Below, in pieces: positions 4,111-24,000 of a stretch of DNA of 24,000 bases. The position numbers were made by a program, and so were the translations under genes. Source of the stretch: Archaeoglobus sp. UBA234 (GTDB lineage: Archaea; Halobacteriota; Archaeoglobi; Archaeoglobales; Archaeoglobaceae); the NCBI GenBank assembly GCA_002494625.1, contig DACH01000016.1, forward strand, positions 109,257 through 133,256. The letters are read 5' to 3'. Numbering within the stretch: the stretch's first letter is position 1; the number at the start of each line of letters is the position of its first letter. The notes beneath the pieces were generated by a model. That model was given only the letters and a program-made list of their open reading frames with translations. It was not told the DNA's origin and made no database searches.

Positions 4111-4125
4111 TCTGCGAGGGATTTT

Positions 4126-5158: not shown

Positions 5159-5512
5159 TTGGCAAGGATACTGATTGTTGATGACGAGGAAGCTATTAGG
5201 GATATACTCAAAATATTCCTTGGACTCAGACATACATATTTTGATGCCCGTGATGGGGTTGAAGCAGTTGAAGTTTATAAAAGAGAGAAACCAGATATTG
5301 TAATAATGGATATCAGGATGCCAAGGATGAGTGGAATCGAGGCTATTAAAAAGATTAAGGAGGTAAATCCTGAAGCAAAGGTCATCGTTCTTACAGCCTT
5401 TGCAGCTGGGAGAAAAGAGGAAATTTTAAAAGCTGGTGCAGATAAAATTCTTGAAAAACCCCTCAGAAAATCAAGAATTGTTGGAGCAGTTGAGGAATTC
5501 TTGGGAAAATAG
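5159..5512 (+). CDS. Stand-alone CheY-like response-regulator receiver (no output domain), paralogue 1
   Basis: The 117-aa protein has the acidic pocket IVDDEE, phospho-acceptor context IVIMDIRMP, VLTAF and LEKPL (conserved Thr and Lys positions). The start is TTG, so its exact position is uncertain. Confidence 0.85.
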   Translation: MARILIVDDEEAIRDILKIFLGLRHTYFDARDGVEAVEVYKREKPDIVIMDIRMPRMSGIEAIKKIKEVNPEAKVIVLTAFAAGRKEEILKAGADKILEKPLRKSRIVGAVEEFLGK

Positions 5513-8079: not shown

Positions 8080-8379
8080 ATGCTCAATGACAGGGATGTT
8101 CTCGAGTTCGTTCTTGCAGGTTATGAGAAACTCAGGGATGTTGCCCGTGAGGACGGAATGGAGGTAGATGAACTCGTTCTGTTTCTAAAAAATGAGCTTG
8201 ACCTTCACGAAAACTCATGTTTCAGAGTCAAAGTTAGAGGAATTATCGAAGATGGTGTAAAAGAATCGGATTCCGGTTTTATCCCTGTTAATACCAGTCA
8301 GAGCAGAAAAAGGTTAATGAATATCGTAAAATCAGGATTTGCATTGATAACCCACAATGAAAAAATTAAAGTAGTTTGA
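8080..8379 (+). CDS. Hypothetical small protein (99 aa) between the afpA-like gene and a receiver gene
   Basis: The ORF has normal amino-acid composition. It is co-directional with its neighbours, with gaps of 63 nt upstream and 18 nt downstream. I recognise no family. Confidence 0.5.
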   Translation: MLNDRDVLEFVLAGYEKLRDVAREDGMEVDELVLFLKNELDLHENSCFRVKVRGIIEDGVKESDSGFIPVNTSQSRKRLMNIVKSGFALITHNEKIKVV

Positions 8380-8397: not shown

Positions 8398-8757
8398 ATG
8401 AAACCGAAGATTCTCTTGGTTGATGATGATGAGCTCCTCAGAGGTATTCTTGCGTCAATGCTCTCTGACTATCAGGTGATAGAAGCAGATAATGGCAGGA
8501 CGGCAGTGGAGCTTTTCAAAAAGCACAAACCTGATTTGATTCTAATGGATGTAATGATGCCGGTTATGGATGGAGTTGAGGCAACAAAACATATCCTCAA
8601 GGAAGATCCAAAAGCAAAGATTCTGGCAATAACAGCCTTTGCACCAATAAGAGGAAATGAAATGCTTGAAGCTGGAGCAATGGATATTATCACGAAACCA
8701 ATCACAAGGAAAAGGCTAAATGAAATAGTTAAAGAGTATCTTGCGATTAAAAGATAA
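8398..8757 (+). CDS. Stand-alone CheY-like response-regulator receiver, paralogue 2
   Basis: The 119-aa protein has LVDDDE, LILMDVMMPVMDG, AITAF and ITKPIT. It is closely related to 21161-21514, even at the DNA level (ATGCCGGTtATGGATGGAgTTgAGGCaACAAAA vs ATGCCGGTgATGGATGGAaTTcAGGCtACAAAA). Confidence 0.87.
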   Translation: MKPKILLVDDDELLRGILASMLSDYQVIEADNGRTAVELFKKHKPDLILMDVMMPVMDGVEATKHILKEDPKAKILAITAFAPIRGNEMLEAGAMDIITKPITRKRLNEIVKEYLAIKR

Positions 8758-10803: not shown

Positions 10804-10875
10804 CGGACCCGCCGGGAGTTGAACCCGGGTCTGAGGCTCCGAAGGCCTCCAGGATATCCGCTACCCTACGGGCCC
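10804..10875 (-). tRNA. tRNA-Arg (anticodon UCG), no encoded CCA
   Basis: This is a manual fold of the reverse complement GGGCCCG-TA-GGGT-AGCGGATA-TCCT-G-GAGGC-CTTCGGA-GCCTC-AGAC-CCGGG-TTCAACT-CCCGG-CGGGTCC-G. It gives a 7-bp acceptor stem, a D arm with A14/G18G19, a 5-bp anticodon stem, the loop C-U-UCG-G-A, and a T arm with GTTCAAC. The discriminator is G. Confidence 0.85.
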
Positions 10876-10908: not shown

Positions 10909-11622
10909 CTATATTTTTATAAGGGAGTCCATTTTTATACCTTTCTCTGTGATCTCGTAATTTTTTATGGTCTTGGGGACGAGAGCTTTTTTCAATTTTA
11001 GTATTTTAAACCTTCTCTGGATCTCGTTTTCGATCTCCTTTGTGGAGAGCTCAAAGACTCCTGTAGAGTGGTGTTTTATCTTGTTCTCTATGCTTTGCTC
11101 GTAGATTCCCTTTGTCATTAAGTTGAGAAAGACAGAATTTGTTTTCTTTGAGTATTTTGAAAGCTTTATCAGGAAATCTGAAACATCTTGAAGCTCGTAG
11201 TTTTCAATGAAATAGATAAGGTTGTTTATAATTATTCTGTCGAACATCTCGTTCTCGAGTATAATTTGTAAACTGCTGATTGGATCGTATATCACTCTCC
11301 TGATAAAACTCTTTAAATCTTCTTTGAATTCGATCCCCTCGCTTATTTGAGGGGAAAATAAACTCAGAATTGTAAGGTTATCAAACAGGTTTTTTGGATT
11401 TCTGAAATAAAGGTTGAAGTACTCTTTAGTCTCTTCGATTGTATCGTCAGTGGAGATGTAAAGAACATTCTCTCTGTTTTTTACACCTTCAAGTGCAAAA
11501 TGGAAAGTGAATATGTCCCCTCCACTTCCAGGCTCTTCAAATATCGTAATAATACTTCCACCCGGAATGCCACCATTCAAGTGGTCGTCAAGAGCATTTA
11601 TTCCTGTTCTATATATCCTCAT
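10909..11622 (-). CDS. KaiC/RadA-like RecA-superfamily protein with degenerate Walker A and B (predicted pseudo-ATPase)
   Basis: The N-terminus RTGINALDDHLNGGIPGGSIITIFEEPGSGGDIF matches the KaiC/ArlH pattern (TGI..LD..L.GGIP.GS...I.G.PG.GKT), but GKT is replaced by GGD (nt 11515-11532). The Walker B equivalent reads RIIINNL instead of hhhIDSL. The gene is divergent from arlB. Confidence 0.62.
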   Translation of the reverse strand: MRIYRTGINALDDHLNGGIPGGSIITIFEEPGSGGDIFTFHFALEGVKNRENVLYISTDDTIEETKEYFNLYFRNPKNLFDNLTILSLFSPQISEGIEFKEDLKSFIRRVIYDPISSLQIILENEMFDRIIINNLIYFIENYELQDVSDFLIKLSKYSKKTNSVFLNLMTKGIYEQSIENKIKHHSTGVFELSTKEIENEIQRRFKILKLKKALVPKTIKNYEITEKGIKMDSLIKI

Positions 11623-11758
11623 TTAAGTTTAATGAAATATTTGAGTATTTAACCTTACTGGATGGTGAATATTTGGAGTCATATGCTTTCAAAAATGAAA
11701 TTCTGTTGGAGAAATCACTTAATTGAAATTTTGGTAGTATAATTTTAACTTAGAAAAA

Positions 11759-11768
11759 GGTAATTACC
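11759..11768. promoter_or_regulatory. Perfect 10-bp palindrome GGTAATTACC upstream of the archaellin TATA box
   Basis: Seen directly. It lies 14 nt upstream of the TTTTATATA element and shares the GTAATTA/TAATTAC core with the inverted repeats at 21615 and 22073. Confidence 0.35.
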
Positions 11769-11782
11769 AAACATAAAAAAAA

Positions 11783-11791
11783 TTTTATATA
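11783..11791 (+). promoter_or_regulatory. Candidate TATA box (TTTTATATA, preceded by an A-run BRE-like element) for the archaellum operon
   Basis: The sequence is acataaaaaaaaTTTTATATActtataatg, about 84 nt upstream of the arlB ATG. It is the best TATA-like element in the 252-nt divergent intergenic region. Confidence 0.45.
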
Positions 11792-11874
11792 CTTATAATG
11801 TATCAAATTAACTGTTGACCATAGTGGTGGGAGTGAAGATATGAAAAATAGGTGTAAAGTCGCGAGGTGAAAGA

Positions 11875-12462
11875 ATGTGGAAAAAACTGAAAAGGGATGA
11901 AAGGGCATTCACGGGACTGGAAGCAGCAATCGTTCTGATAGCCTTCGTGGTTGTTGCAGCGGTTTTCAGTTACGTCATGTTAGGAGCAGGTTTCTTCACC
12001 ACACAGAAGAGCCAGGAAGTTGTGCATACTGGAGTTCAGCAGGCAAGCAGCAGTATTGAACTTTCTGGTGATATAATCGGTGAAGGTAACACAACAGCAA
12101 ATAGGTTAGAGAAAGTAAGAGTGTTCATTCAGCTAACAGCAGGTGGAAATCCTGTAGATATCAGTAAGACTCTGATTACAGTGACAACAGACGATGCTCA
12201 CCATTCATTCACACTGGGCAGTGTGGCAGATTCAAGTTACTTCAAAGTAGCGAATAAGTATGGTGGCGACTCAGACAATCTGCTGGAAAAATTCGAGAAA
12301 TTTGAGCTTGAAATAAATGTCACAAAGGAGGCTTTGGGTTCAAGTACAGATATTACAGCAAATGAGAAATTCCAGGTTGAAATCAAACCACCTCAGGGTG
12401 CCTCTGTTACAGTGGTTAGGACAGTACCTGCAAGTATCGACTCTGTAATGACCCTATACTGA
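11875..12462 (+). CDS. arlB: Archaellin (archaeal flagellin) with class III (type IV pilin-like) signal peptide
   Basis: MWKKLKRDERA|FTGLEAAIVLIAFVVVAAVFSYVMLGAGFFTTQKSQEVVHTGVQQASSSIELSG has a charged leader, a predicted peptidase site after Arg-Ala, Glu at +5, and the conserved archaellin hydrophobic N-domain. SD GAGGTGA lies upstream. It is the first gene of the arl cluster. Confidence 0.88.
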   Translation: MWKKLKRDERAFTGLEAAIVLIAFVVVAAVFSYVMLGAGFFTTQKSQEVVHTGVQQASSSIELSGDIIGEGNTTANRLEKVRVFIQLTAGGNPVDISKTLITVTTDDAHHSFTLGSVADSSYFKVANKYGGDSDNLLEKFEKFELEINVTKEALGSSTDITANEKFQVEIKPPQGASVTVVRTVPASIDSVMTLY

Positions 12463-12465
12463 AGA

Positions 12466-12495
12466 TTTTAAAAATTTTTTAATTTTATTTTTTTT
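12466..12495 (+). terminator. Oligo-T tracts (T6, T4, T8) directly after the archaellin gene; candidate partial terminator/attenuator
   Basis: The sequence ttttaaaaaTTTTTTaaTTTTaTTTTTTTT lies between the arlB stop (12462) and the SD GGAGG (12496-12500) of the next gene. Confidence 0.5.
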
Positions 12496-12507
12496 GGAGG
12501 TAAAAAT

Positions 12508-13251
12508 ATGGAGAACCTCGATCAGTCGATGATAGATGACATAATAGCAAGTGCTGATGAAGACTCACCAGAATCAAGAATAGATAGGCTTGAGGAGGAG
12601 ATCACCGAGATAAAAGGCTCCATAAAAAAACTGCTCCTCGATATTAGGGAGACTATAAACATTATTGAGAACCCCTTCCAGAGTATTCAGAGCATTGCAG
12701 AAAGTGTTGGCAGCGGTAAAGTTCAGGCTCTGCAGATAATTCCACCCGAATATTCTGAGCCAGAAAAAAATAATGAAGATATGGAAAAAGAAAGTGAACT
12801 CGATGAAGGGAAGGAAGAAAATATGCTGGAAGATAAACTTAATGTTCCAGAATTCACTCCGGAATTTAATAATCAGATGTGTCAGAGTAATTATGGTGTT
12901 AATAAGGCTGATAGATTCCAGGATCAGCCATTACAAGAACTGAAAAAGCTTGTAATTCCAATAAAACAGATTGACCCTTTGGCTTTATACAGTATCATAG
13001 AGTGGAGCAATGAAATGCTTGGTAGATACACCAAAGAAACCTTGGTTGAGCTTGTTGAAGTTTTTGAAATGGTTGGTTATATCTCCGGTGAGATTAAGGA
13101 AGTAGTTGTAAAGATAATTGAACTCCTGGATAGGGATAATAACCTTGATAATGCAATTGTAGATCTGTATAAGCTCTATAACATTTTAAATCCAGAGGAT
13201 GTATCCCTGGATTCTAAGGTTTTGAAACTTCTGCTTAATAATGGCAGATAG
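12508..13251 (+). CDS. arlCDE: Archaellum accessory protein of the ArlC/D/E (FlaC/D/E) type
   Basis: It has an N-terminal coiled coil (RIDRLEEEITEIKGSIKKLLLDIRETI), an acidic linker, and a C-terminal FlaD/E-like domain (LYSIIEWSNEMLGRYTKETLVELVEVFEMVGYISGEIKEVVVKIIELL). It lies right after arlB. Confidence 0.72.
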   Translation: MENLDQSMIDDIIASADEDSPESRIDRLEEEITEIKGSIKKLLLDIRETINIIENPFQSIQSIAESVGSGKVQALQIIPPEYSEPEKNNEDMEKESELDEGKEENMLEDKLNVPEFTPEFNNQMCQSNYGVNKADRFQDQPLQELKKLVIPIKQIDPLALYSIIEWSNEMLGRYTKETLVELVEVFEMVGYISGEIKEVVVKIIELLDRDNNLDNAIVDLYKLYNILNPEDVSLDSKVLKLLLNNGR

Positions 13252-13259
13252 GTGTCATT

Positions 13260-13736
13260 ATGGCGAGGGAGGTGATAACTACATCATTGCTCGTAATTGC
13301 AAGTGTTGTGGCGGTTGCAGCCTTGATTAATGCGGTATTTCCCTCTATCCATAAGATGACAAGCTCGTTTAACTCTTTAGCCAATAATATGGAAGAAAAA
13401 ATTGAGACCGATATGGATATAATATTCATAACCACAAACGGTAATTTCGTTTATTTCTGGGTAAAAAATACAGGCTCTTCCAAGGTTTCGCTGAGTTACT
13501 TCAACAATAGTGATGTCTTTATTTATTCGTCTTCAAACTACTGGCGTGCAGTTTTTGAAGGAACATCCAATCCAAGATGGAACTATACAGTTGAAAATGG
13601 GGATGGAGATGGATACTGGGACTCCGGAGAAACTATAAAGGTTACAGTTGAGTTTGATTCACTGCCAAGCGGTGAGTATAAGGTAACTCTCGTTTTGTAC
13701 AATGGCCTCTCTGTCTCGGATATTTTCTCGGTATAG
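13260..13736 (+). CDS. arlG: Archaellum protein ArlG (FlaG)-like
   Basis: The 158-aa protein has an N-terminal hydrophobic helix (MAREVITTSLLVIASVVAVAALINAVF) followed by a beta-rich soluble domain (FVYFWVKNTGSSKV). The G versus F assignment rests on N-terminus style (MA..E.I) and the G-F-H order known from Archaeoglobus and crenarchaea. Confidence 0.6.
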   Translation: MAREVITTSLLVIASVVAVAALINAVFPSIHKMTSSFNSLANNMEEKIETDMDIIFITTNGNFVYFWVKNTGSSKVSLSYFNNSDVFIYSSSNYWRAVFEGTSNPRWNYTVENGDGDGYWDSGETIKVTVEFDSLPSGEYKVTLVLYNGLSVSDIFSV

Positions 13737-13745
13737 GGTGATGGT

Positions 13746-14225
13746 ATGGGGATGGACACGGTGATAGTCTCAGTAGTTTCCATAGCTCTCATCCTTGTAG
13801 TTGCATACTCATTTGCAATGGAGACGAATAATCTGATAACATCAGCTCACAGTGGGTTCTCAAATCTCCAAAAATTAACTCTGAAGAAGATTAAAACCAA
13901 TATTGAGATTCAAAACATTTTGTGGAATGTAAGTGGTAATAACTACCTGAGGTTTAGTGTTGCAAATACAGGAGATACCAAACTGAGCAATTTTGAGCTG
14001 TGGGATGTGGTTGTTGTCAGAAACAACTCCACTCTGTACTTGAGTTATGGCTCAGACTGGATTGTTGATAGTATTTCCAACGATTCAATAAACCCGAATA
14101 TACTTGATCCCTTTGAAAGTGCACAGATTGAAGTTCGTATTCCTTTTGAAAGTGGTGAGAGTGTCATAATAAGGGTTTCCACTCCTAACGGGGTGGTTGC
14201 AACCCAGAGATACAATGTGGGGTGA
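13746..14225 (+). CDS. arlF: Archaellum protein ArlF (FlaF)-like
   Basis: The 159-aa protein has the N-terminal helix MGMDTVIVSVVSIALILVVAY and then a beta-sandwich-like domain (LRFSVANTGDTKLSNFELWDVVV). It directly precedes arlH, overlapping it by 4 nt if arlH starts at GTG 14222. Confidence 0.6.
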   Translation: MGMDTVIVSVVSIALILVVAYSFAMETNNLITSAHSGFSNLQKLTLKKIKTNIEIQNILWNVSGNNYLRFSVANTGDTKLSNFELWDVVVVRNNSTLYLSYGSDWIVDSISNDSINPNILDPFESAQIEVRIPFESGESVIIRVSTPNGVVATQRYNVG

Positions 14226-14230
14226 TATTA

Positions 14231-14956
14231 ATGATCGATAATATAGAGGAGGAAATTAAAAAATCGATACTTTCAAGTGGAAACAGCGAAATTGATAAAA
14301 AACTTGGAGAAGGAATTCCCTTAGGCTCACTGACTCTTATAGAAGGTGAGAATGACACTGGTAAAAGTGTACTCTGTCAGCAATTCATTTACGGAGGATT
14401 GAGGCAAGGACATAAGATTGCATATTATTCCACAGAGAACACAATCAAAAGTCTATTAATGCAGATGGAAAGTCTGAGCCTTGATGTTTCAGAGTTCTAT
14501 GCGTGGGGATATTTTCGAGTGTTTCCGGTGCATCTTGAGGGGGTTGACTGGACACCTAAGCAGATGAAAAGTATTCTCACGCTCGTTTCCGACCATATAA
14601 AGAGTATCAGAGAGAATGTGATAATGATTGATTCTCTGACAATGTTTACAACATATTCAGAGGAAGATGATATACTCGAATTTCTCACTAGGTTGAAGAA
14701 CCTGTGTGATAGGGGGAAGACCATTATGATAACACTGCATCAGCATGCGTTTAAAGAAGATACTCTTGTTAGGATAAGATCTGCCTGTGATTGTCATTTG
14801 TTTTTGAAAAAAGAACAGGTTGGAGACCGGTATGTGAGTGTGCTGGAGGTATCTAAAATAAGAGGAGCCAAGAAAACAACGGGGAATATAGTGAGCTTTG
14901 AAGTCCAGCCTGGTTTTGGGTTAAAGATAATCCCGATATCTCAGGCTCAGACCTAA
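14231..14956 (+). CDS. arlH: ArlH (FlaH), KaiC-like ATP-binding archaellum motor component
   Basis: It has EIDKKLGEGIPLGSLTLIEGENDTGKSVLCQQF (intact Walker A GENDTGKS), NVIMIDSLT (Walker B) and VLEVSKIRGA. The start is ATG 14231 (SD GGTGA 5 nt upstream) or GTG 14222. Confidence 0.88.
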   Translation: MIDNIEEEIKKSILSSGNSEIDKKLGEGIPLGSLTLIEGENDTGKSVLCQQFIYGGLRQGHKIAYYSTENTIKSLLMQMESLSLDVSEFYAWGYFRVFPVHLEGVDWTPKQMKSILTLVSDHIKSIRENVIMIDSLTMFTTYSEEDDILEFLTRLKNLCDRGKTIMITLHQHAFKEDTLVRIRSACDCHLFLKKEQVGDRYVSVLEVSKIRGAKKTTGNIVSFEVQPGFGLKIIPISQAQT

Positions 14957-14994
14957 AACTTTATATTATACATGATAATGACAATAACGATGAG

Positions 14995-16851
14995 GTGAAT
15001 AAATTGGCAACGGTCGTTGATGAGCTGAACTTAGGAATGGAGCAAAACAGATTTAAAAGTGGGATAGTTGCCAATTTCCCTTTTAGACCCAGAAAGATGG
15101 ATGATCATGATCATTCAAATCTCAAAACATGTAGTATATATAGAATACTTCCAAAGCTGATGAAAAAAGAAGTTGAAAGGAATATGCATTTGCTGGAATA
15201 TCTGCATGTTGTTCCGATGGATAAAATTGGTATTCCAAAGTTTATTCCCAAGCTTGAGAAAAAACATGGTGAAATCGAGAATCCAAATTTGATTTATCAG
15301 GCAAGTGATCAGATATATATTCACATCTATACGGACAAAAACGATGTCAGGAATTTTTACATTCCAATTGAACCCACTCTTTTAACTGGAGTTGATCTGT
15401 TACTTAAAGAGGTAGAAGTTAAGCTTGTAGATTTCCTCACAGAAATCGACTTCGATCCTGAGGATAAAGAGGAGAAGGAAAGAATCCTCAAAGAAGCTCT
15501 GAAAGAAATCTGTGTGATAACCAATGGAAGAAAAGTCGATGATTTTATAGAAAATGAAGAGGGTATTTTAAAACTTTTTATGAGGAATAAAAATAATGGT
15601 AAAAATGGGCATCATATTTATGTCACAAGAGAGCAGTATAAGGCACTGGAATATGCCATCATAAGGGATAAAGTTGGGTTGGGGGTTCTCGAACCATATA
15701 TAAGGGATAAACATATTGAAGATATCACATGCAATGGTTTAGGACCTATATTTATTGAACACAAGGTGTTCAAGGGTCTTAAGAGCATAATTGAATTTAG
15801 AGAGGAAGAAACTTTGAATAAGTTTATTATCAGACTTGCTGAAAGAATTGGGAAGCCGATCACTTATAAAGATCCGATAGTTGATGCAACCCTCCCTGAT
15901 GGCTCGAGAATCAATATCGTTTTTGGCAATGATGTGAGCAAAAACGGTAGTAATTTTACAATCAGAAAGTTCAATGAGACTCCTTTCAGTGTTCTGCAGG
16001 TCATTGAGAGCGGGGCTATGGACTACATGATTGCAGGGTATCTATGGTTGTTGATTTCAGAGGGGATGTCTGGATTTATATGTGGTGAAACTGCGAGTGG
16101 TAAAACCACATCGCTGAATGCAATTACTGCTTTTATATCTCCGGATGCGAAGATAGTCTCAATAGAAGACACTCCCGAACTACAGGTCCCACATAAAAAC
16201 TGGACAAGAGAGGTAACTCGAGGAAGTACGAGAGGTGGATCCTTAGGTGAAGGAAGTGGATCAGATGTAACAATGTTTGATTTGTTAAAGGCAGCTCTAA
16301 GACAGAGACCAAACTATATACTTGTTGGTGAGATTAGAGGTGTTGAAGGTAATATAGCCTTCCAGGCTATGCAAACTGGACATCCAGTTATGTCAACATT
16401 TCATGCTGCAACAGTAGAAAAACTAATTCAAAGGCTAACGGCTGAGCCGATAAGTGTTCCTAAAACCTACATCGATAATCTGAATTTCGTGCTGATTCAG
16501 AGCGCTGTTAGAAGACCTGATGGGCGGTTAGTGAGGAGGGTATTGAGTGTTAATGAGATCGTTGGATATAACCCACAAAAAGGTGGTGTATCCTTCATTG
16601 AGGCTTTTTCCTGGGACCCTGTGACGGATTCCTTTGTTTTTGGTGCATATGGTAGCTCTTATTTGCTTGAGCAGAAAATTGCAACAAGACTTGGAATTCC
16701 AACCAATAAGAAGAAGGTAATCTATGAAGAAGTTGAAAAGAGAGCAAAAATACTTCAAAAACTGCATGAGGAGGGTATTACTAATTTCTACGACTTTTTC
16801 AACACATTAGCCAAGATAAGAAAGAGTGGCATGCTGAAAATAGAATTTTAG
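14995..16851 (+). CDS. arlI: ArlI (FlaI), archaellum assembly/motor ATPase (type II/IV secretion NTPase family)
   Basis: It has Walker A GETASGKTTSLNA, SIEDTPEL, the Walker B region NYILVGEIRGVEG, and the His box GHPVMSTFHA. The start is uncertain (GTG 14995, TTG 15004 or ATG 15037). Confidence 0.93.
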   Translation: MNKLATVVDELNLGMEQNRFKSGIVANFPFRPRKMDDHDHSNLKTCSIYRILPKLMKKEVERNMHLLEYLHVVPMDKIGIPKFIPKLEKKHGEIENPNLIYQASDQIYIHIYTDKNDVRNFYIPIEPTLLTGVDLLLKEVEVKLVDFLTEIDFDPEDKEEKERILKEALKEICVITNGRKVDDFIENEEGILKLFMRNKNNGKNGHHIYVTREQYKALEYAIIRDKVGLGVLEPYIRDKHIEDITCNGLGPIFIEHKVFKGLKSIIEFREEETLNKFIIRLAERIGKPITYKDPIVDATLPDGSRINIVFGNDVSKNGSNFTIRKFNETPFSVLQVIESGAMDYMIAGYLWLLISEGMSGFICGETASGKTTSLNAITAFISPDAKIVSIEDTPELQVPHKNWTREVTRGSTRGGSLGEGSGSDVTMFDLLKAALRQRPNYILVGEIRGVEGNIAFQAMQTGHPVMSTFHAATVEKLIQRLTAEPISVPKTYIDNLNFVLIQSAVRRPDGRLVRRVLSVNEIVGYNPQKGGVSFIEAFSWDPVTDSFVFGAYGSSYLLEQKIATRLGIPTNKKKVIYEEVEKRAKILQKLHEEGITNFYDFFNTLAKIRKSGMLKIEF

Positions 16852-16860
16852 GTGTCAGAC

Positions 16861-18489
16861 ATGGAATTAGCCAACATCAAAAACCTCGCTATGAAATACA
16901 GAAAGGAGAAGAAACTCAAGGAGTCTCCCGGATTATTTGAAAGACTCAGAAAAATTAAAGAAGGCCTTTATTTGGATAATGATCTGCTTTTTATTCTCAC
17001 TTATATGGCGTCAATCTCAACAGCCCAGATTAGTAGAGATAAAATTTTTGAGAAGACCTCTGAGAAGGAAGAATATGCTCCAAGTACTTATTTCAGAAAG
17101 GTTAAAGATCTGGCGCAGAAATGGCATTATGATTATGCAACAGCATGTGAACTCATAGCAAAAAAGATAAAACATGAAAATTTAAAAAAATTGTTCAATC
17201 GGTTCTCAAACGCCATATCTGCTGGTGAACCCGATAGAGAATTTTTGGAAAAGGAATGGAAAGTTTTTAAGACAATAAGAAAAGATGAGTTTGAAAGAAG
17301 CCTTGAGTCCTTGAAGAAGTGGTCAGATGCATATACTGCTCTGATGGTATCAACTTCTTTGATATCAATAATAATCCTTCTTTCGGTTATAATATATAAT
17401 ATCGGGGATCCTGCTCGGACTTTATTCACAGTTGCTGGTCTTGTGTTCGCGATCTCTCTTTTTGGAGTTGGTTTTTTGTTTAAATCTGTTCCCAAGGACA
17501 TCAAGACGCATAACTTGAAAATAAAATCGAGAGAGCAAACAATTGTGTATAAATGGATGCCAGTCAGTTATTTACTTTCAGCAATTTTTGTACTATCAAT
17601 AACCGTTGTACCTGTTTTTGTTAAACCTGACTTATTTGTTTTTAATGATCTGGATTTTAAGGGACTGGGCTTGATTGCAGCGGGTTTAACCATGTTTCCA
17701 GTGGGATGGATTGGGAGAAAAGATGATATAAAAATAAGCAAAAGAGATGAGAGCTATACTGTCTTCATTAGAAGTCTTGGCGCCATAGTTAGTGGAGCAG
17801 GGGTCACAATCGCAGAAGCACTTACAAAAATTGACCAGAAAAATCTTGGAGAACTCAAAGAACTATGCTATCAACTTTACAAAAGATTGTCAATGGGTCT
17901 GGATCATCGTTTGAGCTGGGAGAGGTTCATTGGAGAAAGTGGGAGCTACCTGATTCATAAATTAACTAGTGTTTTTGTAGATGCTGTAGATCTTGGAGGA
18001 GATGCCGATACTATTGGAGAAATCGTTAGTTCATCAAATCTCGAGCTGGTACTCTTGAGAAAGAAGCGGGATTTAATTTCTTCGGGATTTATTAGTCTCG
18101 TTATTCCATTACACGTGGCAATGGTATCACTTCTGATGTTTATCAGCCAGATTCTGACAATTTTTTCTGAGCTAATTACATCGCTTTTCACGGAATATAG
18201 TATATCTGGTGATAAACTTGAGGAAATTCCAGGAGGTATATCTGGGATGAATTTGGGAATTTTTTCAGGCGTTCCGTTGGATGTGCTTGCTCAGTACACA
18301 GTAGTGGTAGTAATTCTTGTAACTATAGCAAATACTCTCGCTGCAAAGATCGTTAAGGGGGGAGCAAATTATATGGCTCTGTATTATGGCTCGATTCTTT
18401 TCACACTGTCTGGAATTATGATGATAGTTATCCCACCGTTAGTTGATATGGCATTTTCATTCCCATCTTTTGTAGAGGGAGGTGCATAA
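16861..18489 (+). CDS. arlJ: ArlJ (FlaJ), polytopic archaellum membrane platform protein (GspF/PilC-like)
   Basis: The roughly 540-aa protein has two cytoplasmic helical domains alternating with clusters of TM helices. It follows arlI immediately. ATG 16861 has TAGGTG 6 nt upstream, and GTG 16852 is an alternative start. Confidence 0.87.
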   Translation: MELANIKNLAMKYRKEKKLKESPGLFERLRKIKEGLYLDNDLLFILTYMASISTAQISRDKIFEKTSEKEEYAPSTYFRKVKDLAQKWHYDYATACELIAKKIKHENLKKLFNRFSNAISAGEPDREFLEKEWKVFKTIRKDEFERSLESLKKWSDAYTALMVSTSLISIIILLSVIIYNIGDPARTLFTVAGLVFAISLFGVGFLFKSVPKDIKTHNLKIKSREQTIVYKWMPVSYLLSAIFVLSITVVPVFVKPDLFVFNDLDFKGLGLIAAGLTMFPVGWIGRKDDIKISKRDESYTVFIRSLGAIVSGAGVTIAEALTKIDQKNLGELKELCYQLYKRLSMGLDHRLSWERFIGESGSYLIHKLTSVFVDAVDLGGDADTIGEIVSSSNLELVLLRKKRDLISSGFISLVIPLHVAMVSLLMFISQILTIFSELITSLFTEYSISGDKLEEIPGGISGMNLGIFSGVPLDVLAQYTVVVVILVTIANTLAAKIVKGGANYMALYYGSILFTLSGIMMIVIPPLVDMAFSFPSFVEGGA

Positions 18490-18490
18490 A

Positions 18491-19360
18491 ATGGATGTGG
18501 CGTTAGTAGTGGGTATCGTCATAGCAGGGGTTACGATTGGAGCTGTGACGATATACGATAGGTTTAAACAGGAAAAAAAGTTGGAATTTAATATATCCAA
18601 AAAAATAGTTCCAAATAAAGCTAAAATAAAGACTGAGTTTTTAAATAGGATTTTTGATAGGTTTGCCAGTTTCAGGATGAAAAGAGAAAGTGGAACTGAA
18701 AAAAAAGATGTGAGTGGATTAAAGGGTAAGTTTGCTCGATTTGGTACACTGTTCGGGAGATCAAAGAGTTTTAAAGGCTTTAGCTTATTTTCACCATTTG
18801 GATTCTTTAAATCAAGGCAAGAAAAGAAATTAAAAGAGATTGATGAGAAACTTGAAAAAGTTGTCAATGAAAGCCCGAGTTACAGGAAAAAAGAAGTTGA
18901 AATAGATGATTCGGAAGTTAAAAAAATACTAGAAGAAAAATTGGACACTTTCAATGTGGATGATAATCTGTTAAGTGAGATGGAAACTGCAGAGAGAGTT
19001 GATGACCTTAAAAGGTACAGTGACGAAATCGAATCTGCAGAAAATTTGAATTCAGATGTTGTTGTTGATACAGATGATTTGGATTTTGGTATTGATATTG
19101 CAAACATTGAAGATTCGAACGAAGAACTGGATGACGAATCTGTTGATGATAATCTTGGCTTAGAAATGGAAACAGTTGAAGTAGACTTTGATGACAAAGA
19201 TGAGTTGCTATCGTCTTTGCAAAAGGAAATATCCGTAAAAAAGGAAGAAAAACTAGATTTATTGAGAGATTTAAGAAATGAAAATTTGGATCTAAAAGAA
19301 TTAAAAAGAGAGCTTGAGGAGGTACTGGGAACACTCAGACTATATGCCAAAAGCTCCTGA
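18491..19360 (+). CDS. Unrecognised membrane-anchored protein: one N-terminal TM helix, a basic Phe/Gly-rich segment, and a long acidic coiled-coil-like tail
   Basis: ATG 18491 lies 2 nt after the arlJ stop, with GGAGGTG 8 nt upstream (GTG 18482 is an alternative start). The product starts MDVALVVGIVIAGVTIGAVTIY, then includes FARFGTLFGRSKSFKGFSLFSPFGFFKSRQ, followed by an Asp/Glu-rich region. I recognise no family. Confidence 0.6.
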   Translation: MDVALVVGIVIAGVTIGAVTIYDRFKQEKKLEFNISKKIVPNKAKIKTEFLNRIFDRFASFRMKRESGTEKKDVSGLKGKFARFGTLFGRSKSFKGFSLFSPFGFFKSRQEKKLKEIDEKLEKVVNESPSYRKKEVEIDDSEVKKILEEKLDTFNVDDNLLSEMETAERVDDLKRYSDEIESAENLNSDVVVDTDDLDFGIDIANIEDSNEELDDESVDDNLGLEMETVEVDFDDKDELLSSLQKEISVKKEEKLDLLRDLRNENLDLKELKRELEEVLGTLRLYAKSS

Positions 19361-19372
19361 AAGGGGTAACAT

Positions 19373-21142
19373 ATGGTTGAAAAAGAGAGTGTTGATAAAT
19401 TAGCAGTTGTAAAATGGTTTTTTCTGATCTTTACATTAATTTCAATTTTAGTTTTTGAATTATCAGCTGGATTATATTATTTAAAATGGAATGAAGAAAA
19501 GAGTATCTTAGAAACATCAGAAAGAGAAAGAGTCGAAAACGCGAAAGAGTATATTTCCAGTAGTCTATCATCATCATCTATCGATTTATTTGTTCTTTCT
19601 GAAAATAATGTATTTAAAGAAATTAAGAATAATGATGTGTTGAGAAATGATTTGATTTTTAGAATTTATATGTTAATCAAACTGAACGAAGAGTATGAGA
19701 GAATTGTTCTATTTAATGAAACTGGAGGGCAGATTTTGAGCATAACTGATGGAGGTTGGCATTCAAAGGAAGATTTGCGGGACAGAAAGTATCTCATTGA
19801 ACCGATGATTAAATCCCTCATTGACGAAGCTTTAAAACAGGAAGGAACGAATATGCTTTTTATTCCGGCTGATGAAAACGATGGACATCATGTCATATGG
19901 TTTGCAACCTCTGTAGCAGATTCGGATAACAGAAATGTTATAGCTCTTGAATATTCTGTTGACGAACTGATTTCCAGCCTTGCAAAAAGATTTGGTAGCG
20001 ACGATAGACGGTTCATTTTTTTAGATTCTAATGGGAGAATACACATTATAAAAAATAAAAATCAGGATTGGGACACAGTTGATGATGGTAAGATCATGTA
20101 TTATCTCTCTGAGGGGTGGAATATCATAGAAACCAAAGAAACAGGTCAGTTCTATATAGAAGATGGTCTGGTTACATTTACGACGATCTATCCACTCCAC
20201 TCTGCAAGTAGATACCTGAAAAATCTTGAATTCCCGAATAATAGTTATTTGATCTCTCAGAATAACACCAACGATTTAAGCTGGAAATTGGTCAGTGTCA
20301 TACCTAAGGAAAAGATAGACTCAATACGAAATAGTATCCTTATGGACTTTGTACTTTTTGATGCAATCATCCTTGGAGTTACAGGTTCACTCTCTTTGCC
20401 TCTTTCTTATTTTATAGAAAGGCGAAAGAAAGCCCAGAAAGAAATAGAAATGTATGCGGCGAGACTTGAAGAGAAAAACAAGATGCTTACACTTTTTCTT
20501 GATATAATACGACACGACTTAAAAAACCCTATCAGCGTTGCGTATGGTTACATCGATCTAATGGATTCTGAAAGTACCAGTGATGATGACAAAACCATGT
20601 TCGAAAAAATTAGAAAACAACTAAAAAAGGCGATAGAAATAATGGATAATGCGAAAAAACTCTCTAAGGTAGAAAATATAAAAGAACTTGAGAAAAAAGA
20701 AATAGATCTCAGGCTGTTAATTGATGAATTAATCACCAATTTTAAACTGAACTCAGAAGAACCTTCAATTAAAATTGAGAATAACATAGAGAGGAATGTG
20801 AAGATTATGGCGAATGACCTAATTGAGGATGTTTTTGCAAATCTGATATCAAATGCCATTAAGTATGCTGGTGGGGACAAAACAATTAGGATTGATTGTA
20901 TCGAAACAGATGAGTATATCAGAGTAAGGGTAATAGATTACGGTCCTGGCGTGGACGATGAGAGTAAAGAAGTAATTTTTGATAGATTCGAGAGGGGAGG
21001 TTTAACAGATATAACAGGGACCGGACTCGGTCTTGCGATTTCTAAGAAAATAGTTGAGCTTCATTCTGGGAAGATTTGGGTTGAAGACAACCCAGAAGGT
21101 GGAGCAATTTTTGTGGTAGAATTACCCAAAAGAACAGTATAG
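19373..21142 (+). CDS. Sensor histidine kinase (TM - ~280-aa extracytoplasmic domain - TM - HisKA - HATPase_c)
   Basis: TM1 spans about residues 11-37 and TM2 about 321-347. The H-box is FLDIIRHDLKNPISV (His381, nt 20513-20515), the N-box is LISNAIKYAGGD, G1 is IDYGPGV and G2 is GTGLGLAISKKIVELHSGKIWVE. The periplasmic domain has the size of a double-Cache/PDC sensor, but the fold is unverified. Confidence 0.9.
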   Translation: MVEKESVDKLAVVKWFFLIFTLISILVFELSAGLYYLKWNEEKSILETSERERVENAKEYISSSLSSSSIDLFVLSENNVFKEIKNNDVLRNDLIFRIYMLIKLNEEYERIVLFNETGGQILSITDGGWHSKEDLRDRKYLIEPMIKSLIDEALKQEGTNMLFIPADENDGHHVIWFATSVADSDNRNVIALEYSVDELISSLAKRFGSDDRRFIFLDSNGRIHIIKNKNQDWDTVDDGKIMYYLSEGWNIIETKETGQFYIEDGLVTFTTIYPLHSASRYLKNLEFPNNSYLISQNNTNDLSWKLVSVIPKEKIDSIRNSILMDFVLFDAIILGVTGSLSLPLSYFIERRKKAQKEIEMYAARLEEKNKMLTLFLDIIRHDLKNPISVAYGYIDLMDSESTSDDDKTMFEKIRKQLKKAIEIMDNAKKLSKVENIKELEKKEIDLRLLIDELITNFKLNSEEPSIKIENNIERNVKIMANDLIEDVFANLISNAIKYAGGDKTIRIDCIETDEYIRVRVIDYGPGVDDESKEVIFDRFERGGLTDITGTGLGLAISKKIVELHSGKIWVEDNPEGGAIFVVELPKRTV

Positions 21143-21160
21143 TGGCAGGGGTGAGAGAGG

Positions 21161-21514
21161 ATGTTTGGTAAAGGAAGAGTTCTGATCGTCGAAGATGATT
21201 TTGCTGTTGTGGAAATGCTTAAACTGATGTTGTCGGAGTATCATGTAGAGGTTGCGACAAATGGTTTCGAGGCTGTTGAAAAGTACAAGACATTCGAACC
21301 AGATGTTGTGCTTATGGATATAGTGATGCCGGTGATGGATGGAATTCAGGCTACAAAAGAGATTTTAAGTATTGATAAAAACGCGAAGGTTATTGGAATT
21401 ACTGCCTTCGGAAAGCATAAAGGAGATGAGATGCTTGAGGCTGGAGCCGTTCATATATTGGAGAAACCGATTACAAAAAAGAGCCTTACAAATTCGATTG
21501 ATAGGTATTTATAG
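21161..21514 (+). CDS. Stand-alone CheY-like response-regulator receiver, paralogue 3 (adjacent to the kinase)
   Basis: The 117-aa protein has IVEDDF, VVLMDIVMPVMDG (Asp53), GITAF and LEKPIT. It starts 18 nt downstream of the kinase stop, with SD GGGGTGAGAGAGG. Confidence 0.88.
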   Translation: MFGKGRVLIVEDDFAVVEMLKLMLSEYHVEVATNGFEAVEKYKTFEPDVVLMDIVMPVMDGIQATKEILSIDKNAKVIGITAFGKHKGDEMLEAGAVHILEKPITKKSLTNSIDRYL

Positions 21515-21537
21515 CTATTAAAAAATATTGCACTATC

Positions 21538-21558
21538 TTATTTTAATCAATAATTTTT
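21538..21558 (+). terminator. T-rich, AT-rich region after the receiver gene; candidate end of the long arl transcription unit
   Basis: The sequence is cttaTTTTaatcaataaTTTTTatt. These are the first T-runs after the tight arlJ-to-receiver gene string. Confidence 0.35.
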
Positions 21559-21614
21559 ATTAAGTTATCTCTAATATCTTACTTATGTTATTAGTGTTTT
21601 AGTTTTATTTAATT

Positions 21615-21634
21615 TAATTACAGAATTGTAATTA
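21615..21634. promoter_or_regulatory. Inverted repeat TAATTAC-N6-GTAATTA (extendable to 10-bp arms, 21613-21636) upstream of the wHTH gene; candidate operator
   Basis: The repeat is seen directly as tTTAATTACAgaatTGTAATTAAa. It is followed after exactly 18 nt by the TATA-like TTAAATAT (21653-21660), which lies 30 nt before ATG 21691. Confidence 0.55.
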
Positions 21635-21690
21635 AAAGTAAAATAGTAACAGTTAAATATAATTGTTATTGTTATCATGATGGGGGTGAT

Positions 21691-21972
21691 ATGATGCTCG
21701 AGGTAGAGTATGAGAAACAATCTGAAGCATTGCTGAAAGTGATATCTCGAAGTGGTATGAGTTCAATTCTGAGAAGCCTTGAAAAAAATCCACAAAGGTT
21801 CTCTCAGTTGATGTTTAAGGCAAAATTAAACCCTGGAATCCTCGATCGGCATTTGAAATCTCTGATGGAAATTGGGGCTGTGGAAAAAGATGGAGATACG
21901 TATATACTCACCAATAGGGGTCACAGACTCGTTAAGGCTTTGTACAGTCTGTTTGAAATATATATGGATTGA
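21691..21972 (+). CDS. Small winged-helix (ArsR/MarR-like) transcriptional regulator
   Basis: The 93-aa protein contains SILRSLEKNPQRFSQLMFKAKLNPGILDRHLKSLMEIGAVEKDGDTYILTNRGHRL, which fits helix-turn-helix plus a beta-hairpin wing. SD GGGGGTGAT lies upstream. Confidence 0.7.
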   Translation: MMLEVEYEKQSEALLKVISRSGMSSILRSLEKNPQRFSQLMFKAKLNPGILDRHLKSLMEIGAVEKDGDTYILTNRGHRLVKALYSLFEIYMD

Positions 21973-22072
21973 TTTTTAGAAGACTTTGTGTTATACTCTA
22001 ATTTGGGTGTTTGTGTCTTTCAACATTTTCTTCACTCTCATTTAGCAATCTAGAAGGTAACATCTCAACCTA

Positions 22073-22092
22073 TAATTACATTTTAGTAATTA
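22073..22092. promoter_or_regulatory. Second copy of the inverted repeat TAATTAC-N6-GTAATTA, upstream of the MCP gene; candidate operator
   Basis: The repeat is seen directly as aTAATTACattttaGTAATTAt (8-bp arms, 22072-22093). It is followed after exactly 18 nt by the TATA-like TTATATAC (22111-22118), which lies 37 nt before GTG 22156. Confidence 0.55.
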
Positions 22093-22155
22093 TCTTTTTA
22101 CAAGAAATTCTTATATACTTAAAATTAAATTAATTATTTAGTGAGGTGGTAAAGA

Positions 22156-24000
22156 GTGCTGGAAGTGGAAGATGCCAAAAACGGACCTAAAAAACGTAAT
22201 GTTAAAAGGAAAGACGAAATCATCAAAGAACTAGAGAAGGAAATAGAGACTCTAAGGCATAACCTGGAGGAAAAAAAGATTGAGATTGAGCGTGAGAAAA
22301 AAGCAGCAAAACAGGCTTATAAACTGATTGAATTAATTGCAAAGGAAATCCCCTCTCCAGTATATTTTGTTTTTACCAATAAGGAGGGTAGAATAGCCTA
22401 TGCAAACACTGAAATGGCAAAACTTGCAGGATTTGACGAGGTCAGTGACATAATAGGTAAAAGACCCTCAGAGCTTTTTGCTGTTAAAGGGAAAACTATA
22501 GCTGAAATCGTTGTAGAGACTGCAGAACCAATATTAAATAAAGAAGTCCTAATAGAACTCATAAATGGGAAGAAGATGTTTGCACTCGTTTCCTGCGTTC
22601 CGCTATTCATTGATGGAGAGCTTGCTGGTTCCTTAGGAGTGTTCACGGACATCACAAGAATACATAGTCAGGCGAAGGAAATGGAAGAACTCATCAATAA
22701 GATTCCTGTACCATTACTTGTTCTGGATAAGGATCATAAAATAAGGTACTGGAATAAGGCTGTAGAGGATTTAACTGGGGTAAATGCAGAGGAGATGGTG
22801 GGTACAAACAGACAGTGGGCACCATTCTACGATTCTGAAAGGCCTGTCCTTGCAGACATAGTGATGACAAACCCAGATGATGCGCACGAGAGATATCCTA
22901 ATGTGGAAAAATCAAACCTCGTAAGTGGTGCATTGTTTGCACAGGGTGAGTTCACAATTAACGGGAAGAAGAGATACCTCAGATTCACGGCAGCACCAAT
23001 ATATGGTGAAAATGGCGAGATTACTGGAGCAGTAGAAACTCTCGAGGATATAACTGATTTGAAGGAAAGGGAGATGGAGGTTCAGAGAGTTCTCGATTTC
23101 GTAGAGAAAATCATCAGAGATATGCCCTATCCTGCATATGTTCTGTTCGTAGATAGGGAAGGCAAGATAAGATATGCCAACAATGAACTCGCAAAACTTG
23201 CAGGCTACAACCACTCTAATGAAATAGTTGGGTTGTCACCCCATGATCTTATTAAAACTGATGGTAAGAAAACTGCTGCCGAAATGGTGATGGAATCGGG
23301 TAAATCTATCATGAATCATGAAACAGTACTGAGACTTGCAAAAGTTGAAAAAGATATTCCAGCCCTCATTTCAGCTGTTCCGATTACTGATAGAGATGGT
23401 AACATAATTGGTGTGCTTGATTTGATTACCGATATAACGGAGATCAAGGAGAAAGAGAAAGAGATAGAAGAAATGCTTGCTTACACTAGTAAATGTCTGA
23501 CGATTTTAAGCAACGGAATTAAAGAGCTTCAAGCTGGAAATCTTGATGTTAGACTTGAAAAGTTGAAAGATGATGAGTTTGGTGAAACTTTCGAAGTCTT
23601 CAATGAGTTTGCGGAGAGATTATACAAGATACTTGAAGGACTTGCCAGAGATATGAAGGACGCCACGAGTCAGATTAAAGAAGCAAATGAGGCTGTAAGT
23701 CAAATGAACGCTGGAATGCAACAGATATCCTCAGCATCTCAGCAAATAGCAACTGGTTCTGAAAATCTTTCAAGACTCGCTAACAATTCAGCTTCTGATC
23801 TGAAAGCTGCTGAAGAGATATTCAGAAGTCTCGATGAGTCGGCTTCAGAATCTTCTATTTATGCCTCTGAAGTTGTGGAAGATGCTGAGAAGACCAAAGT
23901 TCTCGGTGAGAACGCACTTCGAAGACTTACAACCATGATTGATGAGATTGAAAAGTCTGCAGAGATCGTTAGCTCTCTCAATGAGGCTGTAAAGAATATT
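22156..24000 (+). CDS. Soluble methyl-accepting chemotaxis protein (coiled coil - PAS - PAS - PAS - HAMP - MA signalling domain); the 3' end lies outside the window
   Basis: It is absent from the ORF track because it has no stop inside the window. The frame is open for 615 codons from GTG 22156, which has an in-frame TAA at 22150-22152 just upstream and SD GAGGTGG 7 nt upstream. The three PAS-like units end in TDIT/EDIT/TDIT motifs. The HAMP-like segment is LQAGNLDVRLEKLKDDEFGETFEVFNEFAERL. The MCP signalling-domain start is AVSQMNAGMQQISSASQQIATGSENLSRLANNS. No TM segment was seen. Confidence 0.85.
   Translation, partial: MLEVEDAKNGPKKRNVKRKDEIIKELEKEIETLRHNLEEKKIEIEREKKAAKQAYKLIELIAKEIPSPVYFVFTNKEGRIAYANTEMAKLAGFDEVSDIIGKRPSELFAVKGKTIAEIVVETAEPILNKEVLIELINGKKMFALVSCVPLFIDGELAGSLGVFTDITRIHSQAKEMEELINKIPVPLLVLDKDHKIRYWNKAVEDLTGVNAEEMVGTNRQWAPFYDSERPVLADIVMTNPDDAHERYPNVEKSNLVSGALFAQGEFTINGKKRYLRFTAAPIYGENGEITGAVETLEDITDLKEREMEVQRVLDFVEKIIRDMPYPAYVLFVDREGKIRYANNELAKLAGYNHSNEIVGLSPHDLIKTDGKKTAAEMVMESGKSIMNHETVLRLAKVEKDIPALISAVPITDRDGNIIGVLDLITDITEIKEKEKEIEEMLAYTSKCLTILSNGIKELQAGNLDVRLEKLKDDEFGETFEVFNEFAERLYKILEGLARDMKDATSQIKEANEAVSQMNAGMQQISSASQQIATGSENLSRLANNSASDLKAAEEIFRSLDESASESSIYASEVVEDAEKTKVLGENALRRLTTMIDEIEKSAEIVSSLNEAVKNI

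Follow-up and report, generated by a model that had tools for sequence, protein, structure and literature searches.

What follows arlJ in an archaellum operon of the Archaeoglobales, and does it take part in motility? The question is raised by a 24,000-nucleotide stretch of DNA from Archaeoglobus sp. UBA234 (assembly GCA_002494625.1, contig DACH01000016.1, positions 109,257 to 133,256), called the window here, with positions counted from its first letter. Its archaellum cluster, arlB to arlJ, starts at 11875 on the + strand and is followed on that strand by genes for an acidic single-pass membrane protein of 289 residues (18491-19360), a transmembrane sensor histidine kinase of 589 residues (19373-21142) and a stand-alone receiver of 117 residues (21161-21514). 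A sequence-only reading of this DNA had treated the acidic protein as a passenger and the other two as a dedicated non-Che phosphorelay acting on the archaellum. We find that the acidic protein was under-read and is the conserved element, and that a classical two-component pair is appended to the archaellum operon in one lineage. The reading that we prefer, with modest confidence, is that of an Archaeoglobi-type arl operon ending in the acidic gene, with a two-component pair inserted before the taxis block in a single lineage and probably read through from the arl promoter.

The acidic gene after arlJ

The acidic protein has a simple layout. A transmembrane (TM) helix at residues 1-24 is followed by a basic segment (28-110; 22 Lys and Arg versus 7 Asp and Glu) and then by an acidic one (111-289; 59 Asp and Glu versus 26 Lys and Arg). 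Because the Lys and Arg residues come after the TM helix, the positive-inside rule would place the tail in the cytoplasm. The protein belongs to an uncurated family, and no Pfam or NCBIfam family matched it. An AlphaFold2 model based on 47 sequences had a mean predicted local distance difference test (pLDDT) score of 60 and was confident only for the TM helix and for a C-terminal helical hairpin (233-263/268-288); a Foldseek search of the PDB with this model gave no match at E≤0.001. Profile matches in the PDB to cytochrome b562 and BRIL were judged to be spurious.

Homologs of the protein numbered seven by single-sequence search and 49 by profile search, the latter with members in Archaeoglobus fulgidus, A. 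neptunius and Geoglobus, and an exhaustive profile search found 58 among 1.84 billion representatives. Members from the Archaeoglobi were retrieved by profile at E-values of 1e-121 to 1e-16. We define the family by an N-terminal TM helix, the motifs KEIDxxLExVV and NLLxEMETA, an acidic linker and a C-terminal hairpin of the form DLISSLxKE...DLLRDL...ELxxEL, together with a gene position directly 3' of arlJ, with or without a DUF4352 gene in between. The window protein shows both the sequence features and the position. Invariant in the 47-sequence alignment are L121, F233, D237, L239, K245, D256-R259, E270, E274 and L275.

Among the lineages that were looked up, the acidic gene stands directly 3' of arlJ in 10 of 10, and a DUF4352 gene intervenes in three of these. 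A broader sample was drawn from metagenome contigs, from which 80 arlJ loci were fetched with an ArlJ profile and then scanned with custom hidden Markov models; this survey replaced an earlier scan of genome contigs with ArlJ alone, which had given one locus (the metagenome-assembled genome "Archaeoglobales archaeon B5_G16"). The acidic gene follows arlJ in every one of the 24 surveyed loci that have an ArlJ of ≥56% identity and enough downstream DNA. In a more distant tier (ArlJ identity 38-45%, GC content 0.40-0.59), the open reading frame (ORF) directly after arlJ encodes a protein of 257-503 residues and lies between arlJ and cheF (loci L051, L052, L054, L055, L058, L059, L060, L061, L063, L065 and L066). 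In these proteins the N-terminus is hydrophobic and is accompanied by a basic stretch, a KKIDxLLDxTV motif and an acidic linker, and the C-terminal motif reads, for example, DDDLMASLKSE...SLIRDLKD...ELQKELE. Because this tier has the matching plan and C-terminal motif, the family evidently reaches well beyond the Archaeoglobi. Judged by gene order, the acidic gene, and not arlJ, is the last conserved gene of the Archaeoglobi-type archaellum operon.

Neither the acidic family nor a two-component pair attached to arlJ turned up when the literature was searched by locus tag and topic, and such an absence is no proof. Both also go unmentioned in the main text and searchable supplements of Makarova et al. 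2016 (PMC4858521).

The DUF4352 protein whose gene can separate arlJ from the acidic gene has about 204 residues; the gene was seen at L010:7924-8538, L016:8633-9247 and L021:9385-9996, and also in L030, L031, L033, L035, L039 and L041-L044. Loci L021 and L022 (GCA_030446425.1 and GCA_002494745.1, labeled "Methanosarcinales archaeon" at NCBI) have arlI, arlJ, the DUF4352 gene and the acidic gene, with glycosyltransferase and major facilitator superfamily genes upstream instead of arlB-arlH. A different type IV pilus system was considered for these two and ruled out, as their ArlI is 85% identical to that of A. fulgidus; a split archaellum locus appears more likely.

The kinase, the receiver and their junctions

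The kinase has the parts expected of a classical two-component sensor. It has Pfam matches to HisKA (E=6e-9) and HATPase_c (E=9e-27), the H-box IIRHDLKNP supplies a phospho-acceptor, His381, in the dimerization and histidine phosphotransfer (DHp) domain, and the translation shows the N, G1, F and G2 boxes as NLISNAIKY, DYGPG, FDRFERG and GTGLGLAI. The extracytoplasmic sensor of about 280 residues that the sequence-only reading had described is borne out by hydropathy, which places TM1 at 7-37 and TM2 at 318-345 with some 280 residues between them. The sensor half (the N-terminal 345 residues) has one homolog among 5.8 billion proteins, namely the kinase of a sibling genome with 91% identity at the protein level, represented by a 255-kb contig from the Joint Genome Institute (JGI; locus L014). 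The extracytoplasmic domain is possibly Cache-like: dCache_1 scored 16.5 bits on it against a cut-off of 45 (E=0.0065), and the sibling gave a similarly weak match. A PDB sequence search with the sensor gave no match. An identical kinase is present on several public contigs, including GCA_004367345.1.

The receiver (Pfam Response_reg, E=2e-24) has a complete phospho-acceptor set when aligned with CheY and other receivers, namely E11/D12/D13, D53, T81 and K102. Thus the H-box His in a DHp domain, the HATPase_c boxes, and the acidic pocket, Asp, Thr and Lys of the receiver are all in place, and we hold it highly probable that the pair would work as a two-component system. The earlier description of the receiver as CheY-like needs to be amended: it is not a CheY ortholog. 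Its identity to the sibling's CheY is about 40%, it has insertions and deletions before the conserved Lys, and it is one of three paralogous lone receivers within 24 kb. It is 51% identical to the lone receiver at 8398-8757 and 45% to that at 5159-5512, and against the NCBIfam model CheY_Halo it scored 84 bits, with a cut-off of 200; all three lone receivers fall far below. It also lies outside the che operon, in which the sibling's CheY, encoded between cheF and cheB, is 85% identical to that of A. fulgidus. The two other lone receivers, both on the + strand, have complete active sites and an indel pattern in common with the receiver at 21161, and neither lies beside a kinase; these observations point to an expanded lone-receiver family in this genome.

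The junctions are tight. The sequence-only reading had given their coordinates from arlJ through the acidic gene and kinase to the receiver, and each proved exact on rechecking, with all four genes on the + strand. At the end of arlJ, the TAA stop (18487-18489) has an in-frame GTG (18482) before it and an ATG (18491) after it, and GGAGGTG is found at 18478-18484. Gene callers chose the ATG on five other assemblies of the locus, which gives a protein of 289 residues and a gap of one nucleotide (nt) after arlJ. The acidic ORF ends with TGA at 19360, and a 12-nt gap containing AGGGGT leads to the kinase ATG at 19373; the kinase ends with TAG at 21142, and an 18-nt gap containing GGTGAGAGAGG leads to the receiver ATG at 21161. 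A purine-rich, Shine-Dalgarno-like motif thus precedes all three starts. The sibling genome has an identical junction arrangement.

The distribution of T tracts was likewise as first described: between 11600 and 21690, the only runs of at least five T that lie outside genes come after arlB (T6 and T8 at 12475-12495) and after the receiver (T5 at 21554-21558). The absence of such runs from junctions of 1 to 18 nt carries little weight, because T5 runs are frequent in genes (34 in 9.5 kb) and the junctions are too short for a terminator. Promoters were sought by a scan for the B recognition element and TATA box (BRE/TATA) consensus, which is a crude method. It found a perfect match 97 nt upstream of arlB and TATA-like motifs in the AT-rich spacers before the genes for a helix-turn-helix (HTH) regulator and a methyl-accepting chemotaxis protein (MCP) that lie beyond the receiver. 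For the acidic gene, kinase and receiver, it found no comparable match in the 150 nt upstream of each. A scan for sigma-70 promoters and hairpin terminators was dropped in favor of the BRE/TATA and T-run scans, its counts being at shuffle level and the method inapplicable to archaea. The combined pattern would fit, without proving, one transcription unit that ends with the receiver and begins either at arlB or at a secondary start behind the arlB attenuator.

The sibling genome keeps the whole arrangement, with identities of 96% for the acidic protein, about 92% for the kinase and 98% for the receiver. Ratios of nonsynonymous to synonymous substitution (dN/dS) between the two genomes are 0.35 for the acidic gene, 0.29 for the kinase, 0.03 for the receiver and 0.02-0.10 for the arl core, at a synonymous divergence of 0.05-0.35. 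We read the kinase and receiver from these comparisons as a maintained two-component system under purifying selection. GC content and GC content at third codon positions gave no signal of horizontal transfer, the two genes falling within the range of their neighbors. On the sibling contig, the receiver is followed on one strand by the HTH gene, by a gene for a 945-residue PAS/HAMP/MCPsignal receptor, and by cheW-cheF-cheY-cheB-cheA-cheC-cheD-cheR. The window reaches into this receptor gene (22156-24000, 94% identical to the sibling's MCP over 445 residues); the che operon, from cheW to cheR, starts about 4 kb after the receiver, beyond the window's end, as seen in the sibling.

The best-known relative of this locus is the arl-che supercluster of A. 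fulgidus (AE000782, about 944-965 kb), where the adjacency of the two blocks has been noted (bioRxiv 10.64898/2026.05.11.724246). Like the window, it has the order arlB-arlD/E-arlG-arlF-arlH-arlI-arlJ and an acidic-family gene after arlJ; like the sibling, it continues downstream on the same strand with a PAS-MCP gene and cheW-cheF-cheY-cheB-cheA-cheC-cheD-cheR. It differs in having a gene for a 223-residue HisKA-like protein after the acidic gene, and neither a kinase-receiver pair nor an HTH gene there. Its acidic protein, of 214 residues, lacks the basic insert of about 70 residues present in the window protein. The window layout is therefore an A. fulgidus-type arl-che supercluster with an extra kinase, receiver and HTH gene.

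Orthologs of all three ORFs after arlJ in related genomes had been named as a check of the sequence-only reading, and here the three part company: the acidic gene is found in every context, and the kinase and receiver are not. Neither a kinase core nor a receiver was seen immediately 3' of the arlJ-acidic pair in any of the 10 contexts looked up or of the 80 surveyed arlJ loci. Among the closest relatives (ArlJ identity 75-77%), L006 has an MCP gene and cheW in this slot, and L009 and L015 have a minus-strand HTH gene, a flagellin-like gene and a gene for a PAS protein. Judged by this survey, insertion of the kinase and receiver between the arl and che blocks is peculiar to a single species-level lineage.

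Other lineages fill the slot with proteins of a related kind. In two strains of A. fulgidus, in Geoglobus acetivorans, in L024 and in the L010/L011/L016 lineage, the acidic gene is followed by one for a HisKA-like protein of 223-234 residues, mostly with an overlap of 4 nt (L018:10642-11313, L019:10642-11313, L020:10639-11313, L010:9163-9867 and L024:8657-9334); this HisKA-like gene was seen in 15 of the 24 surveyed loci as well. HisKA is the sole Pfam match of this protein, which is without HATPase_c and has in all copies an Asp in place of the His of its H-box, FLADRLRNPL. It appears to be a pseudo-kinase or a DHp-only protein encoded between the arl and che operons. Orthology with the window kinase was rejected, as BLAST found nothing and hhalign gave a probability of 12% and an alignment of just 44 columns, in DHp helix 1; in that alignment, the Asp of FLADRLRNPL stands opposite His381. 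In L086, L090 and L091 (ArlJ about 35% identity), arlJ is followed by a small acidic ORF with SEDELISSLKEVDKKEEEEEMDL, a weak match, and then by a gene for a 276-residue protein with a REC domain and a winged HTH-like part. In L091 the acidic ORF (150 residues) and this REC/winged-helix-like regulator, followed by a MarR-like ORF, occupy 3422-4758. The 276-residue protein may be a transcriptional response regulator attached to the archaellum cluster. On at least three occasions, then, the position behind the arlJ-acidic pair has come to be filled by His-Asp-type proteins without homology to one another, which is suggestive of a functional link to motility; the recurrence could instead reflect a permissive gap beside taxis genes.

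Origin and role of the pair

On the reading that we prefer, an intact two-TM kinase and a single-domain receiver would have been inserted into the short gap between the acidic gene and the taxis block. All three genes after arlJ would be transcribed by read-through from the arl promoter, because a promoter or a terminator could not be fitted into junctions of 1, 12 and 18 nt that carry Shine-Dalgarno motifs, and the kinase and receiver would in that case be made when archaella are made. The kinase would sense an external cue and autophosphorylate on His381, and the phosphate would pass to Asp53 of the adjacent receiver. The latter, being without an output domain, would have to act through protein-protein contact; ArlCDE, CheF, CheA and the acidic protein are possible targets, favored by position only. 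The parts of this scheme differ in strength. We give co-transcription of the pair with the arl genes an even chance, and an effect on motility or taxis is a tentative proposal that we think somewhat improbable.

Several observations weigh against this reading. The sense strand of the kinase gene contains a T6 run (19418-19423) and a T7 run (20016-20022), possible sites of partial intragenic termination that could attenuate read-through. Archaeal promoters may lie within coding sequence, and the BRE/TATA scan is only a crude matching of consensus. The AlphaFold2 model of the kinase sensor had a mean pLDDT of 36, too low for use in a fold search. Of the roughly 27 genes in the window, three encode lone receivers, one a kinase and one an MCP, so that adjacency by chance is not negligible. 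Finally, the receiver differs from true CheY by the indels in the segment before the conserved Lys, a difference that would argue against CheY-like docking on CheF.

The strongest competitor, which we consider possible and yet clearly less than probable, sees in the pair an ordinary environmental two-component system that settled in a permissive gap and regulates something unrelated to motility. In its favor, the sensor domain is an orphan, the pair is absent from all surveyed relatives and the kinase dN/dS exceeds that of the arl core. Against it, the same-strand junctions of 12 and 18 nt, with no promoter motif detected, favor co-expression with arl, and the arrangement is intact and under purifying selection in the sibling. 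The density of signaling genes in the window (the receivers, kinase and MCP just counted) and the variation of the post-acidic region by lineage (MCP, HTH, flagellin-like gene, DUF4352, HisKA-like protein) would both be consistent with a permissive gap, against which stands the recurrence of HisKA- or REC-containing genes at this slot in other lineages.

Less probable still, and in our judgment unlikely, is the dedicated non-Che phosphorelay of the sequence-only reading, in which the phosphorylated receiver would bind ArlCDE, ArlH/I, CheF or the acidic protein and so act directly on archaellum rotation or assembly. What stood of that proposal is the gene order, the tight junctions, the catalytic motifs, the purifying selection and the place within a motility/taxis supercluster; what fell is the conservation of the linkage for the kinase and receiver, and a full che operon lies next door. 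The operon-like junctions to arlJ and the acidic gene speak for a dedicated function, but the linkage is limited to one species-level lineage, and the closest relatives (ArlJ 75-77%) have MCP and CheW, or HTH and a flagellin-like gene, at the slot. The idea of an input to motility is not dismissed, mainly because His-Asp-type proteins that are not homologous to one another (the HisKA-like protein; the REC and winged HTH-like protein of L086, L090 and L091) recur there.

Known systems offer partial parallels to such an input. The CheY-CheF-ArlCDE pathway is reportedly treated by Schlesner et al. 2009. In it, a phosphorylated single-domain receiver signals to the motor, and in the present lineage cheF and cheY lie about 4 kb downstream, so that a complete Che/CheF/CheY pathway adjoins the pair. 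Unlike in that pathway, the window receiver is not orthologous to CheY, being nearer to the two unlinked window receivers (45-51%) than to CheY (about 40%), and the kinase is a membrane HisKA kinase and not CheA. Sensory input is known to reach the archaellum by way of CheY, CheF and ArlCDE (Li et al. 2020, PMC7534055). A precedent for two-component control of motility is QarABC of Haloferax volcanii, which came from a motility screen, controls motility and cell-shape transitions, and by transcriptomics alters motility gene expression (PMC13464002). QarABC resembles the window pair in being an archaeal histidine kinase with response regulators, and it is not homologous to the sensor domain found here as far as sequence search shows. 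In the bacterium Litorilinea aerophila, a lone cheY homolog accompanies an archaellum cluster (PMC12488501); that receiver has been proposed as a motor input, a role that is disputed since domain content does not distinguish one receiver from another, as is also the case here (bioRxiv 10.64898/2026.05.11.724246). The likeness to the window lies in a lone receiver in or beside an archaellum cluster, and the difference in that L. aerophila has no CheF and no identifiable chemosensory system.

The weakest alternative, which we think very improbable, is that the kinase and receiver substitute for the Asp-for-His HisKA protein as partner of the acidic protein in the Archaeoglobaceae, the unit being an acidic protein plus a DHp-fold protein: the HisKA-like gene does follow the acidic gene in the lineages named above, the window lineage is without it and has a HisKA kinase at that position, and the Asp of FLADRLRNPL aligns with His381, but the profile alignment is as short and improbable as stated, the architectures differ (a cytoplasmic protein of about 225 residues versus a 589-residue, two-TM kinase), and the closest relatives L006, L009 and L015 have neither gene, which makes loss followed by independent gain more parsimonious.

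Whatever the pair does, the acidic protein invites comparison with known motility proteins. Like ArlX (FlaX) of the Crenarchaeota (Banerjee et al. 2012, via PMC8978795), it has an N-terminal membrane anchor and a long helical cytoplasmic part and is encoded in an archaellum operon. Unlike ArlX, its gene lies after arlJ and not between arlB and arlG, and it coexists with an ArlD/E-like gene; further, no sequence or fold similarity between the two was found in Pfam, NCBIfam, PDB profiles or Foldseek against the PDB. With the polar landmark proteins FimV and HubP it shares a membrane anchor, a long acidic, low-complexity cytoplasmic region and genes near motility or taxis genes, and JGI's automatic name for an Archaeoglobus homolog is "pilus assembly protein FimV". 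Homology with FimV/HubP is unsupported, however: the likeness is only compositional, and the acidic protein has neither a LysM domain nor the FimV C-terminal domain.

ArlC, ArlD and ArlE have no membrane anchor, and the connection of the motor with the polar cap and with chemoreceptor arrays is regarded as unsettled (PMC8978795). These facts make the acidic protein a concrete candidate for testing. One could imagine it as the missing euryarchaeal motor component, either an ArlX-like tether or scaffold or a link to the polar cap or chemosensory arrays, with a tail that might dock DHp-fold proteins (the Asp-for-His HisKA-like protein elsewhere, the kinase with its receiver here) and so give the motor a phospho-input that bypasses Che; this idea is speculative, and we regard it as quite unlikely. 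The kinase-receiver pair offers a natural test of a direct His-Asp input to motility alongside CheA-CheY-CheF, albeit of limited generality as a single species-level case. An unannotated acidic family after arlJ, often followed by che genes, is the more general and more interesting result, and the Asp-for-His HisKA-like protein of the Archaeoglobaceae is a second uncharacterized candidate.

The archaellum cluster and other genes of the window

The window has a GC content of 38.5%, and its 5' end is a block of ribosomal-protein genes and SecY. Its arl genes were identified by Pfam and NCBIfam matches, except that the ArlD/E call relies only on sub-threshold Arch_fla_DE matches and on position. 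The euryarchaeal set ArlB, ArlF, ArlG, ArlH, ArlI and ArlJ is clustered in full, by Pfam as three Arch_flagellin proteins, a KaiC-type ATPase, T2SSE and T2SSF. The BRE/TATA-like element upstream of arlB, AAAAATTTTATATA (11778-11791, + strand), matches RNWAAW-TTTAWATA at 14 of 14 positions, counted 97 nt 5' of the arlB ATG, and is a consensus match only.

The archaellin gene arlB (11875-12462, +; Pfam Arch_flagellin, E=4e-44) is followed by a T-rich, terminator- or attenuator-like tract (12475-12495, +), the longest intergenic T tract within 11600-22200. This single arlB encodes an N-terminus like that of archaellin B1 and a remainder like B2 of L001 and L014, where the archaellin genes are in tandem; the chimera may have come from a recombinational deletion between the conserved N-terminal regions, or the assembly may have collapsed the two genes. 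Next comes a divergent ArlD/E-like protein of the ArlCDE class (12508-13251, +), which has 247 residues and no TM segment and matches Arch_fla_DE at a sub-threshold E=0.046. Its orthologs in L009 and L010 match at E=5e-4 and 0.057, and its position equals that of the corresponding A. fulgidus ORF. Then follow, all on the + strand, arlG (13260-13736; Arch_flagellin, E=1e-15; top NCBIfam match ArlG, below its cut-off), arlF (13746-14225; Arch_flagellin, E=7e-9; NCBIfam ArlF, below its cut-off), arlH for a KaiC-like ATPase (14222-14956; PF06745, E=1.5e-28), arlI for the motor ATPase (14995-16851; T2SSE, E=3e-37; 77% identity to A. fulgidus ArlI) and arlJ for the platform protein (16852-18489; T2SSF, E=9e-19; 63% identity to A. 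fulgidus ArlJ).

Downstream of the receiver, an AT-rich spacer (21515-21690, +) with the T5 run and TATA-like motifs is the probable end of the unit and the probable site of the next gene's promoter. That gene encodes the small HTH regulator, of the HTH_45/ArsR type by Pfam (21691-21972, +), and after it stands the 5' part of the PAS-MCP chemoreceptor gene (+ strand), which runs off the window and is the first gene of the taxis block. Homologs of the HTH protein (51-55% identity by tblastn) are encoded beside archaellum clusters in L016, 5' of arlB, and in L021 and L022, after the acidic gene; an HTH45 match was also seen in L025, and the minus-strand gene after the acidic gene in L009 and L015 is of the HTH_45 type. 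The regulator is a candidate for control of arl or che transcription.

Upstream, a gene for a KaiC-like (ArlH-like) single-domain ATPase (10909-11622, -) is divergent from arlB and holds the same position in the sibling genome. Makarova et al. 2016 (PMC4858521) describe both KaiC-like ATPases and HTH regulators in the vicinity of archaellum loci, which accounts for this gene and for the HTH gene at 21691-21972. A transfer RNA gene (10804-10875, -; Rfam RF00005, 57.6 bits) lies between the KaiC-like gene and a beta-propeller gene. A 99-residue ORF (8080-8379, +) with no Pfam or NCBIfam family stands 18 nt 5' of the lone receiver at 8398-8757, a spacing that is operon-like.

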